64,000 nucleotides of DNA, from the NCBI GenBank assembly GCA_963821525.1, contig CAWGED010000019.1, positions 832,001 to 896,000 on the forward strand, given 5' to 3'. Source of the stretch: an uncultured Gemmatimonadales bacterium (GTDB taxonomy: Bacteria > Gemmatimonadota > Gemmatimonadetes > Gemmatimonadales > GWC2-71-9). The notes beneath the pieces are model-generated. The model saw nothing but the letters and a program-made list of their open reading frames with translations, was not told where the DNA came from and made no database searches. The translations under genes and the position numbers were made by a program. This document shows, one piece after another, positions 18,717-52,967 of this stretch (its first letter is position 1; each line of letters starts with the position of its first letter).

Positions 18717-18985
18717 GCTTCCAAAATGCTTTAAGTCTGTTATACCAAACTGTTAGTACGAGAGACTTTACGTACTCACTGATGAGACAGAGCTTGAAGC
18801 CATCTGTCGGACCGAGACCGTACAAACTCTGCAGAGCAGTTCTTCAAAGTTACACTGCTGTCACGACACTGCTGTAATCGGCATTTCTCGCTTCCCGCCA
18901 CCAGGTTTTGGAGTCCCTGTGCGAGGGCTCGTCGTGCCCACCGCGAGATGCCTTTGCAACTAGTCACACCCAGCGCGCTTGAGGG

Positions 18986-19000
18986 GCAACCCAAATGCCA
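18986..19000 (-). promoter_or_regulatory. Putative sigma54 -24/-12 promoter with no adjacent ORF, ~335 bp upstream of pilM
   Basis: TGGCATTTGGGTTGC (GG-N10-GC); one mismatch to the promoter at 19775-19789. Confidence 0.7.
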
Positions 19001-19210
19001 TGGGGGAGAAAGAATGCCGTAACCGACTGATAATGAAGGAGTTAGCGTTGTGATCCGGCGCACGATCCCCGGACCAAAAGTGCTAGATGCCTCTTGGAAA
19101 TTGCCGGAAGTGCCTTATCCCGAAGGAGTTGTGCAAGACCAAAATCAGGGCTCCAAACCCGGGAACAGCAGAGGAAATCACACCAACTCCCTGGTCACCT
19201 CGTAGCCTGA

Positions 19211-19241
19211 AAAGAAGAAGGCGGCGGATCGCTCCGCCGCC
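19211..19241 (-). terminator. Rho-independent terminator after pilin copy 1
   Basis: GGCGGCGGA-loop-TCCGCCGCC followed by TTCTTCTTTT on the minus strand. Confidence 0.85.
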
Positions 19242-19268
19242 CCCTCGTGTTGCCGGTGCCGCGCGACC

Positions 19269-19694
19269 TTACCAGCAGGCCGGGGCGCCTTCGTTGGTCA
19301 CCGCCGCATTCGGCGCATTCGCCAGCGGGCCGGTGAAGATGCCGCAGTTCGTCGGGGTACTGGTCACCGCCGGGTTCGTCATCGTGGCCTTCCAACCGGC
19401 CGCGTCAACGTAGGTCAGGGCCAGCACGTTGCCCTTGCTGGGCACGAACGAAACCTTGCCCGCGCCGCCGGTGCCGTTGGTCTGCGCCGTGCTGACCGTC
19501 GAGCCGGCGTAGTCGTTGTTATCCGAGAAGAACGCTTCCTGCGCCGTCACCAGGTTCCGCAGGTCCGACTTCATGGACGCCACGATCGCCTTCTGCTTGG
19601 TGTTGGCGAACTTCGGGATCGCGATGGCAGCCAGAATGCCGATGATCACCACCACGATCAACAGCTCGATGAGCGTAAAGCCTTTGCGGTTCAT
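19269..19694 (-). CDS. pilA: Type IVa major pilin, copy 1
   Basis: MNRKG|FTLIELLIVVVIIGILAAIAIPKF class III signal; C-terminal Cys pair. Confidence 0.93.
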   Translation of the reverse strand: MNRKGFTLIELLIVVVIIGILAAIAIPKFANTKQKAIVASMKSDLRNLVTAQEAFFSDNNDYAGSTVSTAQTNGTGGAGKVSFVPSKGNVLALTYVDAAGWKATMTNPAVTSTPTNCGIFTGPLANAPNAAVTNEGAPACW

Positions 19695-19774
19695 AAACTC
19701 CTCTCCTGTTTGCGTAAGGTAACCATCTGCCGTGGCCGCCGAGGCACCGGAGATTTTCGATCACCTTCGAGAAA

Positions 19775-19789
19775 GCAACCCCAATGCCA
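19775..19789 (-). promoter_or_regulatory. sigma54 promoter of pilin copy 1
   Basis: TGGCATTGGGGTTGC, ~80 bp upstream of the ATG. Confidence 0.8.
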
Positions 19790-19891
19790 ACCCTCCCTCA
19801 GAAACCTAAGTAATTTCAGAACAAAAACTTACGGACTCCGGCGCTCCCGCAGGCTCCCCGGCAAGCCACTCGAGATCTTGAAAATTGCCAG

Positions 19892-42917: not shown

Positions 42918-45130
42918 TCAAGTCTTGGGGTTTCCCTCCGCCGGTGTCGCACGCTGCCGCACCGCGGCGAGGGCCAGCACGATCGATTCCTGGGAGGCGA
43001 GCAGCTCCCGCACCACCTCACCTGACGGCCGTGGCTGCCGTCTGGGTCGATCGGTCTGCTCGAGAAAGGGCCAGAGCGGAACCCGGATGCTTTCCGGGAG
43101 GACACTTTCCAGGTATTCCAGCGCGGTTCCTCGCAAATACGGCTCGTCGGTGAGCAGCGCACGGTACGCCAGGCGAAGAGGAGCGGCCGGCCTCACGAGG
43201 GCGAGCAGGGTGAAGACATGCTCGAGGCTTCGGTTGGCGCGATCCCGGACGATGTCGGCCTCCGTGGGCGACCACAGCTCGTCGTCGGCATCGAGCAGAC
43301 GGCGGCCTTCCCAGACCCCCCGCTCCACTGTGAGCTCTCGGTGGATCGCGTTCATGACCTGGTCCTCCTTCACCCGGATGCCGGGCATCCGTTCCATCAT
43401 TCGGGCGAGCGCTCCCCCGGCACGATACCGTACTTCGAAGCGCCGGTCTCCCAGCGCACCCAGGAGTGCCTCGAAAGACTGGTCGGTGAAGCAGTCTGCC
43501 AGTACTGCGACCAGTCTGCGCCGCACCGCGAAATCTTCATCGGGATCGAGCAGCCGCCGGGTCAGGAGATCCAGGTTCTCGGAAGCGACTCTTCGCAGTG
43601 CCGCGACGGCATCGGAAGCCACCGCATCCCAGGCCAGGAGATCAATCACTCCGCCAACCTGGTCGCGAGCGAGCGGCGGGCCTCGAAGTCTCGACCGCAC
43701 CGCGGCGACATCCTGAGCGGGCGAGGGGTGTGGCTTCTCCTTATCCTGTTCCGGAGCCGCGGAGCCAGCTTCGTGGCAGTGTCGGGATACTCGCCGGATT
43801 TACCCTCAACGAGGTCAGATCGATCGCGCCAACGGTCTGGAACATCGCGGCCGCGACTTCTTCCGGCCCCAACTGGTCTTCCCTGGCTCGGAGGCTCCGT
43901 TCGAGCGCGCCGAGATATCCCCGTTGCATCCGGCGGGCGATCGCAAGGGTGCCCAGGGCAAGCGCGAGCGTTGCGACCGAGCAGGAGCGGTCGCGACCTG
44001 GAGCGGCGCCGCGAGAATCGCGAGCTGGGCCAATCCCGCCCCGGCGATGTCTCCCAATCGAGCGCCGCCGACATCCACTACCGGCTTTGCGGCTCGTCGC
44101 TCCAGAGCGGAGACCGGGGAGTAAAGCAGCTCCTGGGCCGATCGGAAAACCGAATTGCGGAGCACTGTTTCGACAGCCACGCGCCACTGCCACGGAGGGA
44201 AAGCCGGGTGCCACCAGAGGCTACCAGCGAGCCGAGGGCCACTCCACCGGGCAGCAGCATGCGTGCTCCGAGCGACACCCAGCCGATTGAATATCCAGCC
44301 GGAGCACCGACACCTGCAGCAGGACGGTGAGCAGCGAGGTCACGGTATAGAACACGCGCGAAGAGCCGGAGCAAGCCAGGCCCGTCGGTCATCGTGGACG
44401 CCTGCAGCTTGAAGACGTAGTCCAGCACTCCTTCCGCCGCCGCGGCGAGTGCAACGAGGTAGAAGAGCAGGCGGAGGTATGAGGAGTGGCGCAGCGCTTC
44501 GATGGCCGACGAGGTCGTATCACCCGCCTCAGCGTAATGGGGCCGGCTGGCCGAAGCTGCGGGCGAGGGGCAGTACCAGGATCGCCAGCACCCAGCTGGA
44601 GCAGCGCAAGAACCGGTAAGCATGGAGCTGGCGGAGAACGCGGTCCCCATCGCGCTCCGTCAGGAGGCCGCCCAGGAGCCCGCCAGCCGAGGCCCCGGCA
44701 GTAATCAGGCCCACTGCCCGCCGGGCGGAGCGAGGGTCGAACGATTCATTGACCAGGGCCCAGAATGCCGAGACCAGGAGGGCGCCAAGGCGGTGACGTG
44801 GAGATAGACCAGGAATGCCGCCGGCCGGAGAGACACGAAGCTCAACAGCCACTCGCACGGACGAGCAGGATCGCGACTCCGGCGAAGAGCCGGGGCACCA
44901 GCGTCGCGGGACCCTGCTGGGCCAGCCGTCGTGCCAGCCACAGGGTGACGAAGCAGCGACGAGACCGCGGCGGTCACCACCATCCGCGGCAACAGCGTGA
45001 CGCCAAAGCTGGTGATGAAGAGGGCGTCGCGCGTGGCCTTGGCGGCCAGTTGGAATGCGATCGCCACGGTGCTTGCGAGGACCGTGGCGCGGATGAACCC
45101 GGGCTGATCGCCCGTATTGCGCGCGCTCAA
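42918..45130 (-). CDS. NTT/TLC-family transporter fused to HEAT-like repeats; multiple frameshifts
   Basis: KATRDALFITSFG..LP.M; FWALVNESFDPRSARR; LDYVFK; RNSVFRSAQELLYSP...AKPVVD...RLGD; RRFEVRYRAG and LRGTALEYL in the C-terminal part; TTGA overlap with the upstream stop. Confidence 0.75.
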
Positions 45131-47679
45131 AAGGCGAAACCGGCCTGGACGTAGAGGGCGGTTGTTCGTCCCCGGCGGCCACGGCGGCACTCACTGTGTA
45201 GTCGCGGGCAATGGGCGCCAGCCAGATGCCGCCGCCGAAGGAGCTATGCCAGACATCGGAGTTCTCGCCCTCGAGGAAAACCCGGCCCACGTCAGCCAAA
45301 CCGAACACTCCGAAATCGGTCGGCAGGACGATGGTGGCGCGGCCCAGGCCCAACCGCAACTCTGCGTTGCCGTAGGCCGAGGCATCGCCGGCATAGCGGT
45401 TGTCGCGGCCGAGACGGACGGTCCCGGCGTCTCCGATGTATGCCGCTTCGAAGTAGGGATACGGGCCCCAGATTTTCTTCCCACCCGCCCTGAAGGCAAA
45501 GGTGGGGTGTAGCGGCAATTTCGGACTCAGGAACGTCGTGGCCTCCGCCGCGACATCGCCGAAGTCCTCTTCGACATCCCACCACGCCGGGAACACCCGT
45601 CCGGTGACCTCGACCGTCCAGCCCCGAGTGGCGGCGTGCAGCCGGTTCCGGCTGTCGAATCGGAACGCTACTCCGGCCCCGACTTCACCAAAATTCCCCG
45701 AGCCATATGGATTGACCGTGGCGAGGAAACGATCGGTACGGTTGTCGGTGCTCGCATACTTGAAATACGGTCCGAACGCGATATTCCCGTGTTGGGTCAA
45801 GGGGAACAGGAAGAGGGGCGACACCGTGTACGCGTCCTGAGTCACCCGGTAGAACTCGGCGCTTCCTGGATCATCGATTTCGTTGCCGAAGCCGTGGAAG
45901 TTCAGCACGTCTATGCCCGACGCCCGGGCCAGAAGCAGAAATCCGGCCCGTGAGTTCTCCCGATGGAACTCGCCTCGGTAGTCCACCCGATAGGAGAGTG
46001 GACCTGTGGCGAATCCCGCCCTGATCCGCTGCCGACTGGCAAAGGGAAGTTTGCGGAAGCCATACCGAGTGTAGGTGAGACCGGCGCCGAAGAAGAAGCC
46101 CAGGTCGGGGCCGTAAGAACCCCATATATGAACCTGCGAGCGATGCCCCCAGTCCCGGGGAGGGAGCTGACCCGCCGGGCGGGGCGGCAGCACGTATGGC
46201 TTGCGATCGATCTCCTCGCTTTTTCCCAGAGTGTGTTCCGGCGCCGCAGGATCATCGTAAAACCGATTGCTTCCGCTGGCCGCGGAATCGACCAGCACAT
46301 CGTCACCTTCATCCGCGAGGATTCTCAGGGTGGGGCCGCCACCGCTCCCGGATACCATCGCGCTGTCATCGCCATTTCGCAGAGTGACCCGGATGTCCTT
46401 CGTCTCATTTGCGAGGAACTTTCGGCGAAACCAGGGCAGACCCGGGCGTTTCGCGGGAACCTATGGTGAGCTCGAGGCCTGACTCATCACGGGTCGCGAT
46501 AGCCACATCGCTGCTGTCGGTCGCGGTGACGTCGACTTCGCCCGCCAGCATTTGATAGTACTTCCGCGCTTCCTTGGGCAGGCCGTTTCTGCGTTGGATG
46601 ATCCATTCGGTCAGGCGGCTCCCGATGAGCTGCAAATGCTCCGGAGGGAGGGCGGCCACCGCGTCCTGAATCACGCTATCGCTGAGGGCAGCCGTCAATC
46701 GGCTGACGACGGCCTCCCAGTCCGACCAGGAAAGGCCGATGAGCAGCCGACGATCCAGGTCGCGCCCGTTCCAGGCGGCGCCGACCGGATTGGAGTAGGC
46801 GCCCTTGAAGTCGGTGAGCTGAGGGGCGCTCTGCCGCGCGATCCACAGCAGGAATCCGTCGTACTTGGCGAAGGCCTGATCCCGGTCGAGGGGAATGGGG
46901 ACCCACCGTCGAGGAACTGAGTCTCCGAAGTAGGCCCAGCGCCATTGATCGCGGTGCCGGTCCCAGTCGCCGATCAGAACATCGAACAGCCTGGCCGTAA
47001 GGAAGGCGGGTCCGTCCACCTGATCATCCGAGGATCGTTCGAGCCGGGCAAAAAGGGTGTCGGTGAGGACGATCTCGGTGGCTCCGCCCCAGTGCGCCGC
47101 GGGACCCGACCCACCGACCCGATCTTCGAGGGTGCCCATGAGTCCGGCAAAGTCGGAGCGGAACTCCCCCATGCGCTCGACATCGGGCAGGACGACGATC
47201 GCCGGATCGGCGTGGAGAATGCCGGCGGCCTTGAGCAGCCGGCCCACGACCAGGGGCGCCGTCGGCAGGGCCGAGCTGGTTTGATCCCGCGCCACACCCG
47301 CCGCAACGGTCTGCCGGAATTCCTCCGGGAGAGCACCCGAGGGATCCTTGTCGATTGAGCGGAAAAAGAACTGTCGCCCGTCGGTGGCCTGCAGACGAAG
47401 GGTCTTGCTCTGCTGGCCTCCGGTTCCGGACACGGCGCGTACTCCTCCCGCGAAGGTATCCATGTCCAGCACTGGAACCGTTATCGGAGTGGTCCACACC
47501 TCGCGATACTCGCTGCCCAACAGGAACCGATGGAACCAACCGGCGCCATACTGTTTGCCGGCAGCCTGAAGAGTCGTCTCGGGCTGAGGCTCGGGAACCT
47601 GCTGTGCGAGGAGGGACCCAACCGGGAGTGTGGCACTCAGGACGAGGGTTACCGCCGCGACTCCCCGCCGGATCCTCAT
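45127..47679 (-). CDS. Outer-membrane protein: signal peptide, atypical kinase-like domain, Omp85/TamA-like barrel; two frameshifts (near 46435 and 45165)
   Basis: MRIRRG...SLLA-QQ; GGQQSKTL; LFDVLIGDWDRHRDQW; PLDRDQAF; barrel motifs VRLGR..RYAGD and DVGRV; restored C-terminus LYVQAGFAF-stop. Confidence 0.75.
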
Positions 47680-49090
47680 GCCAATCCTGCCGTCTTCAGC
47701 CGGTACGCACGACCGACCAGTACGGCCAGCACCAACCAGCAAAGCGCCAGCACCAGGTTCACCTTGGCGAACTGCGATGTAGCCGAACCGAAGCTGACTG
47801 GTCCCCACGAAGACCAGGAGGGCGGACAGGACATCTCCCGACCGGACGAAGAAGGAATCGATGACCTGTTTCGCCTTGTACTTCTGTTCCCGGCTGGTGG
47901 GGAGGAAGAGTACGTTGCGCACCGTGTTCTGCAGCGAATAGTCGTTCGCGTTTTCGGCGATCTTCACCGAGCGAACCACGGAGAGAACCGGAAAGAGAGC
48001 GATCGCCGGATAGCCGACCATGGCGATGATTGGCGCGACGAGGACTGCCACCTGAACTCCGAAATACTTGAAAATGCCGGGACACTACGAACAGTTGGAG
48101 CAGGATGCCGACGCTGTTGACGACGAAATAGAACTGGGAGTAGAACGCCCCGATGAACTCCGCCTCCGAGAGTCCACCGGTAGCCCCCTTGGCAACGGCG
48201 GCCTTGGCCGCGGCGGTCAACGGTGCTCGAGAGGATATACTCCCCAGTGGTGTTGACCCAGTTGAGCACCAGAATCATCAGCGCGATCAGCAGGAGATAG
48301 CGATCCCCGAAGACCAGCCGGAAGGTGCCGGGCCGAGGCGGCAACCCGCTGCGGGAGAGCGTTACCGCCTTCTTCTCTCCCCTGGTGACGACTTCGTACT
48401 CACCAGTCGCCGCGGGTACCGTCGCCGTAGTGAACCGGTCTGGAATCCCGGCCTCCGCGTGCCGCCGCTCTCGCGCATCCACGCGATTGCTCAGGACCGC
48501 GGCGATCGCCAGCAGAGCAGCGGCGACCAGCAGCAGCTGCGGCACTCCCACCAAGCGGAATGAGCCGGTTGGTCAGGAGACTTCCAACCACGGCACCCAG
48601 CGATGCCCCGAAGGCGACAATCGGAAACAGCCGCTCGCCCTGATCCTTGGTATACAGGTCGTTAGCAAAGGACCAGAACTGCGCCACGATCATCAGGTTG
48701 AAGATGCCGACCCAGAGAAAGAACGGGAACGCCAACCGGCACGCGAGCATGGGCCAGAGCCCAGAACCCCACGAGGCACACGATGAAGAAGCCGGTGACC
48801 ACATTGAGCAGGCGCCGGCGCGGAAGTCGGTCGGCCAGGGCGCCATACGCGGGAACCAGCACGAGAAGGAGCAAGGCCTGTCCCGCAGCGACGTAGCTCT
48901 TGACCACGGCCCCTTCGTGCGAGAGGATGAGCGCCTCCCGAACCGGCTTGAGGATGTAGTAGGCGCACAGCAGGAGAAGCACATTGAGCGCGAGAAGGAG
49001 GGCCGTTACTCCCTCCCCCGCTCGAACATCGGTGAACAACCGAAGCGCTCGATCCAGCGGCGCGGCTTGATCCACGGTGGACGTAGTCAC
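47676..49090 (-). CDS. NTT/TLC-family (ATP/ADP translocase-like) transporter; about five frameshifts
   Basis: AYYILKPVREAL, AQFWSFANDLY...GERLFP, DYSLQNTVR..LFLPTSREQKYKAK..IDSFFVR.GD. Confidence 0.82.
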
Positions 49091-50502
49091 CCGATGCTCA
49101 CCGTGACGAAGCGAAGTTTGCTGTCCCGAAGGACCTGGAGAACCACCGTGTCTCCCGAATTCAGCGCCGAAAGGCTTTGCCGCAGATCCGCGACGGTGGC
49201 CACGGCGGTTCCGTTCAAAGCATAGATCACATCGCCTGGCTGCAGTCCGCCCTGCCCGGCGGTGGCGTCCGGGGTGAGAGCCGCGACGACCACTCCGCTT
49301 GGTTGCCGCAGCCCCGGGATTTGAGCCGCCAGTTCCTTGGTCATGTCGAGCCCCAGCACACCCAGCCTCGGCACGAGGTTTTTCTCGGGCGTCACCAGAC
49401 TGCCCAGGCGAGCTGCGTTGTCCTGTCGCTCGATCACCGGCACCCGAATGGTCTGGTGCTGGAGGCCTCGCCGCACATCGAGCGCCACCGATTGCCCCAG
49501 GGGCTGGCGATAAAGCGTCACGTCAAACTGCCGCCCGTTCTCAACCACCTTTCCGTTCACCGATAAGACGACATCGCCGGTCTGAAGGCCGGCCTTGGCA
49601 GCGGGACCGCCTGGATACACATCGCCGATGACCACGCCCCAGTTCTGGGGGAGACGAAGGGCCGTCGCCATGGCGGGCGTTATCGTCTGGGCGAAGACCC
49701 CGATGTCGCCCCGGCGGACTCGGCCGTATTGCCGCAGCTGGTCAACCACGTGGCGGACGATGTTGCTGGGGGCGGCAAAGCCGATCCCTTCGCTGCCGCC
49801 CGACTGGCTGAGAATGAGGGTGTTGATGCCAGTCACCGCTCCATCGGTGGTCACCAGAGGCCCTCCGCTGTTGCCCGGATTGATCGGGGTGTCGGTCTGG
49901 ATATAGACCATCCGATCGTCTTCCCGAAGCTGCCGGCCCACCGCACTCACGACCCCCATCGTCACCGTGCTGGCCAGCCCGAGCGGACTGCCCAATGCGA
50001 GGACCAATTCGCCAGGCTCGAGCGAATCGGAATCAGCGAGGCGAGCGACGGGCAGTCCGGTGGCTGGAACCTTGAGAACGGCGAGGTCCGTCTCGCGATC
50101 GATTCCCACCAGCTCGCCCTGGAGCTCGCGAGCGGGACCGGCCACGAGCGATCTCCCCGGAGCGTCGGGTGCGGCCGGAGTGGCCAGCGCGACTGTGAAG
50201 CGGCGCCCGCCCTCGACCACGTGTGCATTGGTGACGATGTAACCGTCCGGGCTGAGGATGACGCCAGAGCCGGTCTGTTGCTGGTTGCCCAGAAAAGCCG
50301 TGCCGCTCTTCTCGCCTAGCGGACCCCAGGCGGCGACTCGAACCTGAACCACGGCGGGTTGTACCTGGGAGGCGACCTTTGCGAGATCCCGACTCAGGGC
50401 TCGCAGATCTTGCTGGGCTGGGAGCGCGTTGGGCCACGCAAGTAACGCCAGCAGGGCAGCGAGCCTCGCCAGCGCAGAGAGGTGCAGGTCAGCGCGCCCC
50501 AC
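49087..50502 (-). CDS. HtrA/DegP-family serine protease with two PDZ domains
   Basis: Signal peptide, GSGVI, TNAHVV, DLAVLK, IQTD..INPGNSGG. Confidence 0.93.
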   Translation of the reverse strand: MGRADLHLSALARLAALLALLAWPNALPAQQDLRALSRDLAKVASQVQPAVVQVRVAAWGPLGEKSGTAFLGNQQQTGSGVILSPDGYIVTNAHVVEGGRRFTVALATPAAPDAPGRSLVAGPARELQGELVGIDRETDLAVLKVPATGLPVARLADSDSLEPGELVLALGSPLGLASTVTMGVVSAVGRQLREDDRMVYIQTDTPINPGNSGGPLVTTDGAVTGINTLILSQSGGSEGIGFAAPSNIVRHVVDQLRQYGRVRRGDIGVFAQTITPAMATALRLPQNWGVVIGDVYPGGPAAKAGLQTGDVVLSVNGKVVENGRQFDVTLYRQPLGQSVALDVRRGLQHQTIRVPVIERQDNAARLGSLVTPEKNLVPRLGVLGLDMTKELAAQIPGLRQPSGVVVAALTPDATAGQGGLQPGDVIYALNGTAVATVADLRQSLSALNSGDTVVLQVLRDSKLRFVTVSIG

Positions 50503-52157
50503 TGGCCTGCTCGACCGCGTCCGGTTCAGAAGTGAGGGCCGGCATCAGGCGCATATCACACTCGACACACTCTTCGCTGAAGGCATTGAGCGGCCGATGC
50601 CTTTCCCACCAGTGTGCCGCCCGCTCTTCATCCCAGACTGCTCCGGGTACTGCAGCCTGGAGCCGCGCGGCCAGCTCTCTCGCCGACTGTGGACGGTCCT
50701 CGGGACGCTTCGCCAGACAGGAGAGGATCACCTCGTCGAAGGCTGCGGGCAGCTCGATCTCGGTCCGCCGGGAAGGTGGTATTGGCGGCTCGTTCGCGTG
50801 CTTCAGCATCATGGCCACGGCTGACGGCGCGTCGAAAACCAGTTTACCCGTCACCAGCCAATAGGCCACGCAGCCCAGGGCGTAAATATCCGCCCGGTGG
50901 TCCACCGGAGTCCCCAGAACAGTCTCCGGTGCGATGTAGGCGGGAGTACCGGCCGTCGCGTTGGGTGCAGTCAGCATCGACTGGCCAGGGTCCGCGTTCT
51001 CGGCCTTCACCAGACCAAAGTCCAGCACTTTACGAAATCAACTTCGAGACCGAGACGACAGGTGAAGATGTTTCCACGCCTTAATGTCGCGGTGGACCAG
51101 CCCATTCACGTGAGCCTCTTCGAGCGACGCGCACGCCTGGGTCAGCAGATACACTGCCCGTTCGGCCGACACCGGACCGAAGGTCTGCACCAGCCTCTCG
51201 AGGTCCAGGCCATCGAGCAATTCCATCACCAGAAAGAAGGTGCCGTCCTCCGACACCCCGAAGTCGTACAGGCTTATCGTGTGCGGCGACTTCAGGGAGG
51301 CGGTGGCCTGTGCCTCGCGCCGGAATCGCTCGAGAATCAGCCGAGCGCCAGCCGCACTGGTGCCACCCAGCACTTCCTGGCGGATGAGCTTGATCGCTGC
51401 CGGACGGGCGAGGGTATGATGCGTGGCTCGATACACCTCGCCCATGCCACCCTTGCCCAACACCTCCTCAAGGCGGTAGCTCCCCAACTCACGCGCACGA
51501 TTGACCTGCTGGCCCAGGCGCCGGATCACCTTGACGGGGACCACCGCGATGGCCGCCGCGATGTAGTTGGGGAGGAAGGCCCAGAGGTAATTGAACAGGG
51601 TCGCGTTCACTTCCTGTCCGCGCAGGGTCGAAATCCAGAGCGCGAGCGGCCCCATGCTGGCCGCCAACAAACCAGTGAAGAGTGTCTTCCGCACCGTATT
51701 GGGCACGATCGAGGGATAGACAACGATTCCCACGATGATCCAGGAGGGGCTCGGCTGGGTGACATGGGGCTCCCACTGCTCAATCAAGCCCACGAGCAGT
51801 GACGTAAGCACCAGGTAGCCCGAACCCAGGTCGAGCAGTAGCTGCTGTCTGAAGCCCTTAACACGGCCCAGGTAGGCCATGAGCAGGGAAGCGGCCAGGC
51901 CGATTCCCGCAGATGAGGTTCCCCGGCATCGGCCAGACCGGGTAGTAGAGCATCGTCACTCCGAGGATCCGGGCGACGACGTTGTTCATGAACAGGGCGA
52001 ACGCCCACAGCGCCGCGAAAGGCGAGAGCTGGCCGCCCAGACCCGTTGGCAGGTCTGGTACAAGACATCGTTAGGCAGGCTGCGCTCAGCCCCACTCGCG
52101 GACATGGCCTGGAGCGGGGGTGGAGGGACGGCGTTGAATAGTCCGGGGTGCGGCCAT
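50489..52157 (-). CDS. Ser/Thr kinase with N-terminal multi-TM domain; frameshifted; start approximate
   Basis: ELGSYRL, GKGGMGEVY, AAIK, HRDIK (break near 51060), LDFGLVK, GTPAYIAPE, DIYALG. Confidence 0.85.
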
Positions 52158-52235: not shown

Positions 52236-52270
52236 AACAAAACGCCCCCGGTGGGATCTCCGGGGGCGTT
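52236..52270 (-). terminator. Rho-independent terminator
   Basis: AACGCCCCCGG...CCGGGGGCGTT with TTTTGTT tail on the minus strand. Confidence 0.8.
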
Positions 52271-52295: not shown

Positions 52296-52967
52296 CTAGT
52301 GAGCGCCCGTCGTATCCACGGTAAGCGAGAACCCGTTCTTGTCCGCCTGAAGCCGTACGACCGCGCGCCCGTCCTTGCCATTTACCAGCAGGAAGGCGCC
52401 GTTGCTGTCGGCCTTCAGGTGAAGCAGCTCGCCCTTATCGCCCTTGGCACTCACGCGAATGGGACCGGTGAAATCGGCGTCGGCCGAGAACGGGTCTCCC
52501 TTGTGGAGCTGAGCCACGACCTTGCTTCCGGCGAGAACGGGGCGCTCGAGCCCCGAAGGCTGGAACACGATCGACCCGACCTCCTGCCACCCGCTTTCAC
52601 CTTTCGCGGCGCAGCGGAAACCATCCTCGAACTCGAAGTCATCACCGCCGACCGGCACCAGCTGACACGCCTTCAGCTGCGACAGGTCCGCATCCGAATC
52701 GAGGGCTACGGTAAACGTGAAGTGAGCGAGATCCTGGTCGGCGGGGCGGCGAATCGACATGTGGTTGACGGTCCCCAACCGCTGCCCTTCCAGGACGAAG
52801 GGGATGTCCGCCTGCAGCTCGGCGGTCGCGACATGGAGCGGCCGGGTTACCCGGGTTAGCGCTGCCTTCATTGTACTCTTGGCATCTTCGACGACGGTGA
52901 CGAGCAGCATGCCGACCAGAAAGACGCCGAGGGCGCCGAGGCCGATTTTGGTCCACAGGGTGCGCAT
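52296..52967 (-). CDS. Hypothetical membrane-anchored protein
   Basis: ATG with GGAGG RBS, N-terminal hydrophobic helix, intact 223-aa ORF followed by a terminator. Confidence 0.75.
   Translation of the reverse strand: MRTLWTKIGLGALGVFLVGMLLVTVVEDAKSTMKAALTRVTRPLHVATAELQADIPFVLEGQRLGTVNHMSIRRPADQDLAHFTFTVALDSDADLSQLKACQLVPVGGDDFEFEDGFRCAAKGESGWQEVGSIVFQPSGLERPVLAGSKVVAQLHKGDPFSADADFTGPIRVSAKGDKGELLHLKADSNGAFLLVNGKDGRAVVRLQADKNGFSLTVDTTGAH

Follow-up and report, generated by a model that had tools for sequence, protein, structure and literature searches.

An operon linking two carriers to an exported kinase

We analysed a stretch of 64,000 nucleotides (the window) from an uncultured Gemmatimonadales bacterium (assembly GCA_963821525.1, contig CAWGED010000019.1, positions 832,001 to 896,000). 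An operon on its minus strand, at 42918-52157, encodes two carriers of the NTT/TLC type and, between them, an exported protein predicted to fuse an atypical kinase to an Omp85 outer-membrane barrel. Three-frame translation resolves five genes, in the order membrane Ser/Thr kinase, HtrA, NTT-like carrier, exported kinase-Omp85 fusion and NTT-HEAT fusion, running from a start ATG at 52157 to a final stop at 42918, with frameshifts breaking four of the five. The features are:

50489..52157, minus strand: membrane Hanks-type Ser/Thr kinase, its kinase domain C-terminal to about five hydrophobic segments at the N-terminus; frameshifted in the window assembly
49087..50502, minus strand: HtrA/DegP-like protease, intact in the window, with a signal-like N-terminus, a trypsin domain and two PDZ domains
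47676..49090, minus strand: single-domain NTT/TLC-family carrier (NTT1); frameshifted in the window assembly
45127..47679, minus strand: predicted exported kinase-Omp85 fusion (KINA-Omp85) with a signal-like N-terminus, an atypical kinase, a beta-rich linker and an Omp85 barrel with a final Phe; two frameshifts
46543..47583, minus strand: predicted atypical kinase domain within KINA-Omp85 (PI4K-II/CotH/CtkA/HipA fold), with FRSxDK and DWDRHxDQW...DRD motifs; boundaries approximate
45127..46145, minus strand: Omp85-type beta-barrel of KINA-Omp85, by structure match to TamA/BamA; boundaries approximate
42918..45130, minus strand: NTT-HEAT fusion (NTT2 carrier domain and C-terminal HEAT repeats); the gene with the most frameshifts
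52241..52270, minus strand: terminator-like hairpin with an 11-pair stem, by consensus match only; it would end the upstream gene and separate the operon from the pil genes

The genes abut through overlaps that can be read directly from the window: 14 nt at 50489-50502 (GTG...TGA), GTGA at 49087-49090, ATGA at 47676-47679 and TTGA at 45127-45130. In a genome of the same genus (G001) all five genes are intact single open reading frames (ORFs) of 554, 471, 469, 847 and 732 amino acids, and all four overlaps recur as 14 nt, TTGA, ATGA and TTGA. The original prediction, made from the sequence of the window alone, had read the same five overlapping minus-strand genes and had looked to relatives as the check on pseudogenisation; both points hold in G001. 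The second carrier and its HEAT domain form one ORF, which confirms five as the number of genes. G001, G003 and G004 share the complete gene order, and G011 has the same order without HtrA. The scan for promoters and terminators that gave the hairpin was at chance level, with 6 such hairpin sites against 7.0 expected.

Pkinase matches fall on both fragments of the Hanks kinase in the window, and its 554-residue G001 orthologue (Pkinase, 4.5e-42) has every catalytic motif: the Gly loop, Lys, HRD, DFG and APE. HtrA matches Trypsin_2 (1.8e-32) and, in two stretches, PDZ_2, and the G001 orthologue has the His/Asp/Ser motifs. The clusters of G011, G120, G105, G143, G158 and G056 gave no HtrA match, and HtrA is an optional cluster member and not a core one.

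The frameshifts look like assembly errors when the locus is aligned with its relatives. Compared with G003, and also with G001 or G004, the operon has 33 non-triplet indels, 26 of which are +1. We read these as errors because such clusters recur elsewhere, with 14 window-specific indels at 18832-19891 and a cluster of its own in the G003 assembly at the window-equivalent 10-14 kb, and because contigs from three short-read DNA runs of close strains, rather than reads known to be of the source sample, disagree with the window at all 12 listed indel sites, of 53. Real decay of the operon in this strain, with intact copies in its relatives, would be compatible with any of the functional readings given below and is improbable. 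In its favour, indel density at the locus is above that of neighbouring genes, with 17 of the 33 window-specific indels in the 44-46 kb bin and none in the 40-42 kb bin. Decay does not sit well, however, with the excess of +1 indels, the comparable clusters elsewhere in this assembly and in another, the close-strain contigs that lack the indels, or a hand count of 24 transversions among 40 listed substitutions relative to close strains. Genes in 18832-19891 may likewise be falsely broken. Pfam searches with the frameshifted fragments were insufficient, giving only sub-threshold TLC matches and nothing for the exported protein, and intact relatives were used instead.

The exported protein is predicted to be an atypical kinase on an Omp85 barrel

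The claim of a secreted outer-membrane protein with kinase-like motifs takes on a definite form in an AlphaFold2 model of the 847-residue G001 orthologue, which has a mean predicted local distance difference test score (pLDDT) of 94 from an alignment of 132 sequences. Residues 509-847 match the TamA barrel (4n74; Z 26.1, root-mean-square deviation (rmsd) 2.7, 291 residues aligned), and the top Foldseek matches of the barrel are BamA, TamA and Sam50. The protein has no Pfam match, and its C-terminus matches the NCBIfam Omp85 model NF047779 (1.9e-16). The kinase region (residues ~30-376) matches PI4KIIa (VIA; Z 15.0, rmsd 4.2, 251 aligned), CotH (Z 14.8, rmsd 4.0, 251 aligned), CtkA (Z 13.5, rmsd 4.6, 216 aligned), HipA (Z 11.8) and Fam20C (Z 10.8), with rmsd values for the first four of 4.0-4.6 across 215-251 residues. 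When the PDB was searched by sequence with the KINA profile it returned CtkA alone (E 0.12), and an ESM Atlas search returned unnamed clusters, with CotH and HipA as low-score leads.

K108, D262 and D264 are present in all 132 aligned KINA rows, D237 in 131 and H239 in 122, their catalytic roles being assigned by motif rather than by superposition. In a crude scan, 114/132 rows have a signal-like N-terminus and 120/132 a C-terminal aromatic residue. On the strength of the model, KINA-Omp85 is predicted to be an exported atypical kinase of the CotH/PI4K/CtkA type fused to an Omp85 barrel, with its catalytic Lys and Asp residues conserved. The family is large, with 2814 representatives at E<=1e-10.

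The beta-rich linker between kinase and barrel (window ~46250-46550; P0002 residues 378-482) has a GGxGxD motif in 77/132 rows, which resembles the RTX calcium-binding repeat. The genome of the window also encodes two kinase-Omp85 paralogues, at G000:C4:55097-56278 (L041) and G000:C19:656838-657890 (L042), neither of which has a carrier match nearby. Their catalytic loops are degenerate, reading NWDPVPQD and DRDRSPEH where DWDRHRDQ would be expected, and they may be pseudokinases.

A second exported kinase family is encoded beside a separate Omp85 protein

A 570-residue exported protein, KINB, is encoded beside a separate Omp85 gene in G012, G134, G170 and G078. Carriers and Hanks kinases flank the pair in all four genomes, with HtrA also present in three, and in G138 KINB lies near a more distant NTT-HEAT gene. 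Lys167, Asp298, Asn303 and Asp323 of KINB are invariant. Its model (pLDDT 89) matches CtkA (Z 13.3, rmsd 3.9, 226 aligned), with PI4KIIa and Fam20 also matched, and has a C-terminal FN3-like domain. Comparison of the KINB and KINA profiles gave no significant match (probability 9%). From the models, KINB is of the same fold class as KINA and forms a non-orthologous family.

Complex prediction for KINB and its own Omp85 protein, using the G134 proteins and not those of the window, gave 0.81 compared with 0.00 for the best control; as a rough guide for our own alignments, this mark was reached by 116/157 solved and 2/215 mismatched pairs. Contact agreement between runs was at least 96%, and the pLDDT of the partners at least 87. 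The predicted interface consists of the N-terminal segment of the barrel protein together with residues 318-322 and 377-385, which we take from the topology of BamA to be periplasmic turns. KINB is predicted to bind the separate Omp85 protein, and thus the split system seems to rebuild the fusion.

The carriers belong to the NTT/TLC family by profile and have a probably altered binding site

With the TLC profile (cut-off 21 bits), the G001 and G011 copies of NTT1 score 35.1 and 45.8 bits, and those of NTT-HEAT score 20.2, just below the cut-off, and 25.6. NTT-HEAT also matches HEAT_2 (4.2e-5) and is a single ORF of 732 residues in G001 and 732-757 across intact relatives. In profile searches of the PDB, AtNTT1 (9j3j) and Chlamydia NTT1 (9j3n) were the only significant transporter matches for both carriers (NTT1: 9j3n 6e-13, 9j3j 1.4e-8; NTT2: 9j3j 4.9e-18, 9j3n 5.3e-16). 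The profile is needed for this result, as a single carrier sequence searched alone against the PDB gave no NTT match. Similarity to TIGR00769 is weak, at 33 bits where the cut-off is 387, and a crude hydropathy scan detects 11 hydrophobic segments in NTT1 and 10 in NTT2, about 12 helices being typical of the family. Both operon carriers are NTT/TLC members by profile, as the original prediction had it, and the HEAT fusion that it described is likewise borne out.

The residues at the nucleotide-binding site weigh against ATP as the cargo. In the profile alignment, K155, E245 and K527 of AtNTT1 fall on Ala68, Gly128 and Asp418 of NTT1, with AtNTT1 numbering placed by one inferred offset of 84 that puts the three residues on Lys, Glu and Lys of 9j3j. 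Asp418 is invariant (18/18 rows), Arg-x-x-Gly-Asp occurs in 49/49 motif matches across 80 metagenome loci, and NTT2 by motif analogy also has Gly-Asp at the matching place. In one study, ATP binding was lost with K527E, and with K155E neither ADP nor ATP was bound (PMC3306366); another states that all ATP/ADP exchangers conserve K527 (PMC2606016), and a third interprets substitutions at such sites as altered specificity (PMC4776705). The carriers are therefore not canonical ATP/ADP exchangers. The nearly invariant Lys64 of NTT1 is a single helical turn away from the K155 site, and basic residues of transmembrane helices TM1 and TM11 are retained, and therefore an anionic nucleotide site probably remains. 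Nucleotide transport by both carriers is plausible from this pattern of residues.

The central loop of NTT1 has a conserved Thr-rich motif, TT-x-x-x-PAATG (window ~48380-48440; P0003 residues 220-230), a candidate phosphorylation site. The motif is found in 17/80 metagenome loci; nine loci have the N-terminal domain of the membrane Hanks kinase, and eight of these are among the 17.

Carrier and kinase genes are linked in many genomes

A Pfam TLC search of genomes missed the genome of the window itself and was replaced by protein and alignment queries; a contig scan for related loci returned just 5. Among 151 Gemmatimonadota genomes, 48 have a KINA match, 72 an NTT1 match and 21 an NTT-HEAT orthologue (E<=1e-100); these counts include the unpublished G083, and a tally of 23/41 relatives includes the unpublished G018. 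Of the genomes sampled, 24 have a close NTT1 orthologue (at least 52% identity), and in 14 of these KINA lies within 6 kb of the carrier, in at least three gene orders; the 14 include G083, placed by coordinates only, and a fragment in G149. Four more have KINB and its Omp85 beside a carrier (G012, G134, G170 and G078). KINA or KINB is present in 21/21 genomes with an NTT-HEAT orthologue compared with 35/130 others, and in 26/30 when the threshold for NTT-HEAT is E<=1e-40. Every KINB genome has a carrier match (16/16). These co-occurrence counts are not test statistics because related genomes are not independent.

The same association appears in metagenomes. In the best 80 of at least 571 loci found with the NTT1 alignment, an exported atypical kinase lies within 9 kb of the carrier in 28 (22 KINB and 6 KINA), at 200 nt or less in 12 of these, and the loci also include a Hanks kinase (17), an NTT2 match (13) and HtrA (3). 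A kinase is present in 14/23 loci with one flank of at least 6 kb and in 4/9 with both, where a rate of ~1.4% would be expected by chance, as estimated from the genome of the window. A tree of 101 NTT1 rows places the orthologue of the window carrier in a clade with Shimodaira-Hasegawa-like approximate likelihood ratio test (SH-aLRT) support of 100, in which 20/21 rows have KINA or its phosphoesterase, five of them the phosphoesterase only, with the contig ending there. KINB-linked rows are dispersed over the remainder of the tree (24 rows, 18 changes). With this tree midpoint-rooted, KINB and its Omp85 may be the older partner, replaced a few times by KINA-Omp85. Gene neighbourhoods thus make carrier-kinase coupling well supported, and the expected conservation of linkage between transporter and outer-membrane protein not only persists for KINA but recurs with a second kinase family.

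It appears improbable that the cluster is only a co-regulated envelope-stress unit of HtrA, Hanks kinases and an outer-membrane protein, whose carriers work independently of the exported kinase. Each part is often found without the other, and KINA and the carriers are on different contigs in G012, G017, G020, G134 and G170. Four of those five genomes carry KINB, however, three of them beside the carrier, and clustering persists through changes of gene order, strand and kinase family.

The linkage is not tight in every relative: at 15 loci from other genomes of the family or order, and at both paralogues in the genome of the window, the retrieved flanks gave no carrier match. At L052 (G120), L053 (G150) and L069 (G078), two to three membrane Hanks kinase genes stand in tandem upstream of the carriers.

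Carriers and kinases also occur apart

Several observations count against a module in which carriers feed the kinase. There is no NTT1 match in 22/48 Gemmatimonadota KINA genomes. In 81 Bacteroidota genomes, KINA has a match in 31 and the carrier profile in 2, with both in one genome, on different contigs, leaving 30/31 kinase-barrel genomes in this set without a carrier match. A strict requirement of the kinase-barrel for a carrier was rejected on these numbers, and the initial idea that the kinase needs the carriers is weakened, although their linkage stands. Conversely, 38/72 Gemmatimonadota carrier genomes have neither kinase. No kinase is seen in 52 of the 80 metagenome loci, many of which are on short contigs, or in 5 of the 9 with both flanks of at least 6 kb. 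The link between KINA and the carrier falls mostly in one clade and therefore represents only a few independent events. In the kinase itself, the catalytic-loop position that would hold the Mg-binding Asn is Gln in 122/132 KINA rows. A scan of 32 neighbours of kinase-less carriers showed no third kinase type.

The neighbours of carrier-less kinase-barrels (63 and 57 scanned) include DUF4956, CYTH-PPK1, PPK1, SdiA-type propellers, HD-PycTM, cyclases, CotH and a phosphate-selective porin. They recall the CotH-polyphosphate polymerase-DUF4956 set that the accessible part of one report describes beside pel loci (10.1101/768473). CYTH-PPK1 fusions are encoded directly downstream of kinase-Omp85 at L033:5822-9121, L035:10668-13922 and L065:18487-19899 (a CYTH match for L065), and DUF4956 genes lie near kinase-Omp85 in L028, L035, L037 and L038. 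DUF4956 was not found in the genome of the window, which is 81% complete.

These neighbours bear on the possibility that the module is the same and the cargo different. The carriers would then move nicotinamide adenine dinucleotide (NAD), another nucleotide, a nucleotide sugar, or a substrate or product of the kinase, and the phosphoryl donor would be something such as polyphosphate or leaked ATP. This reading has replacement of all three binding-site residues of NTT1 on its side, together with the polyphosphate-related genes, CotH and porin beside carrier-less kinase-barrels and the pel-linked precedent. Beyond the canonical clade, some NTT homologues transport NAD or purine nucleotides, and for one of them tests showed no transport (PMC5381601). 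We nevertheless consider it rather unlikely, given the anionic nucleotide site suggested by Lys64 and the TM1/TM11 residues and the missing DUF4956 match in an incomplete genome.

A separate metallophosphoesterase gene, absent from the operon of the window, lies directly upstream of the kinase-barrel gene in many Gemmatimonadota, and Bacteroidota kinase-Omp85 proteins often have an N-terminal PF00149 domain. Bacteroidota kinase-Omp85 genes at L180, L183, L184, L187, L188, L189 and L195 adjoin PycTM membrane genes, most of them HD-fused, and SdiA-type propellers, and in several of these loci they also adjoin adenylate/guanylate cyclases. Elsewhere, an exported 5'-nucleotidase gene follows one carrier (L163), and other NTT-HEAT genes adjoin cyclic nucleotide monophosphate (cNMP)-binding and PAS/histidine-kinase genes.

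Such settings could also fit inward salvage or sensing, in which the barrel and its kinase or phosphatase would handle extracellular nucleotides, the carriers would import them, and NTT-HEAT and the Hanks kinase would form a transporter-receptor signalling their presence. Characterised bacterial NTTs do import nucleotides (PMC5381601), and the 5'-nucleotidase, the cNMP-binding and PAS/histidine-kinase genes, and the cyclase and HD-PycTM genes beside Bacteroidota kinase-barrels point the same way. Salvage would need hydrolases, however, rather than a kinase with conserved catalytic residues; the carriers have recruited two different kinase families; and the gradient from cytoplasm to periplasm would be expected to drive ATP outward through an antiporter. 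We regard import as doubtful.

A possible periplasmic phosphorylation cycle

The reading that we prefer, while holding it as something just under an even call, is that the carriers supply nucleoside triphosphate (NTP) to a barrel-anchored periplasmic kinase, and remove diphosphate from it, under the control of the Hanks kinase and the HEAT domain. From the family membership, folds, residues and gene linkage described above, we infer a location, cargo, direction of transport, substrate and mode of regulation as follows. The Omp85 barrel would fix the kinase to the periplasmic side of the outer membrane. Across the inner membrane, the carriers would swap cytoplasmic NTP, most likely ATP, for spent diphosphate by way of a non-canonical binding site. 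The kinase could then phosphorylate a target in the envelope, which may be a protein, lipid or glycan, as the fold does not tell which. In relatives where it is adjacent or fused, the metallophosphoesterase, absent from the operon of the window, would reverse the reaction. Gating of the carriers would come from the cytoplasm, through the Hanks kinase and the HEAT domain.

The original prediction of ATP delivery to an extracytoplasmic kinase is thus partly supported: the linkage of carrier and kinase speaks for it, and ATP as the substrate is weakened by the Ala, Gly and Asp at the sites of AtNTT1 K155, E245 and K527. More tentatively, we suggest that several free-living lineages may run a regulated periplasmic phosphorylation cycle, with a re-wired NTT pair exporting ATP, an Omp85-scaffolded kinase that is either fused or bound, a reversing metallophosphoesterase, and polyphosphate feeding the lineages that lack carriers.

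Relation to known systems

Every part of the module falls within a known family, as a member or as a variant. Our literature searches, with limited coverage of subscription papers, found no description of the module. The available text of a preprint on oral-microbiome kinases (10.64898/2026.09.18.752743) has nothing on this kinase family, which its supplements could list.

The carriers share with the NTT/TLC antiporters (PF03219, TIGR00769; AtNTT1 9j3j, Chlamydia NTT1 9j3n) their profile membership and, in part, the TM1/TM11 basic motifs. They differ in coming from a free-living host, in their weak similarity, in the replacement of K155, E245 and K527, and in being encoded with an exported kinase. 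NTT-HEAT fusions were described in a 2017 survey (Major, Embley and Williams 2017; PMC5381601), which shares with our operon an NTT with C-terminal HEAT repeats in a free-living bacterium; in contrast, the operon has no fused or adjacent cyclic nucleotide-binding domain (cNBD). In that survey, NTT-HEAT fusions and free-living NTTs were all uncharacterised, and its main text describes no exported-kinase or Omp85 neighbours.

Within the Omp85 superfamily, the kinase and barrel core is shared with the 1176-residue Ulvibacter protein and Bacteroidota PF00149-Omp85 proteins of the 'Metallo' subfamily, as presented in the available part of Heinz and Lithgow (2014; PMC4104836). Bacteroidota kinase-Omp85 proteins with an N-terminal PF00149 domain are members of 'Metallo', whereas the window protein and its genus orthologues lack PF00149, which in relatives is a separate upstream gene or fused. 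The separate barrel of KINB, with only a short N-terminal extension, resembles the 'noNterm' subfamily of the same source. The kinase domain seems not to have been recognised there, because the word 'kinase' occurs zero times in the portion available.

KINA shares with the CotH, CtkA, HipA, PI4K type II and Fam20 kinases the fold (Z 10.8-15.0), the beta3 Lys, the DRH catalytic loop and the D-x-D metal site. It differs from them in its fusion to an outer-membrane barrel, in the Gln that replaces the catalytic-loop Asn in most rows, and in having no Pfam match. In the eukaryotic secretory pathway, Fam20 kinases are fed by organellar ATP carriers. The combination of an extracytosolic kinase, a nucleotide carrier and a phosphatase resembles that arrangement as an analogy only, since the carrier family differs and the setting is a bacterial envelope.

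A 2020 review, in its accessible part, describes the route of ATP across the Gram-negative inner membrane as unknown, with no ATP/ADP translocase known there (PMC7432876), and another paper speculates that in a ciliate endosymbiont an NTT may run ATP/ADP exchange in the outward direction (PMC7969357). For this question of periplasmic ATP, the module names candidate carriers, a candidate consumer of ATP and intact genes. If our reading is true, free-living NTTs gain a role outside energy parasitism, the functions of Omp85 proteins extend to kinase scaffolding, and a periplasmic phosphorylation chemistry is implied. If the cargo is not ATP, the switch from Lys to Asp still marks a new specificity class of NTT.

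Additional neighbouring genes

Between pilC and the operon, window positions 52296-52967 (minus strand) encode a 223-residue protein with a hydrophobic N-terminus, no Pfam match and 81-94% identity within the genus. One NTT1 subclade (L109, L112, L113, L123, L129, L131 and L152) adjoins dicarboxylate-symporter/solute-binding-protein fusions and MltF-like genes in place of kinases. In four genomes, NTT-HEAT adjoins a fusion of a molybdopterin oxidoreductase with a class V aminotransferase, 1136-1183 residues long (L058:3521-6946, L059:13101-16508, L060:2240-5647 and L067:3807-7355).

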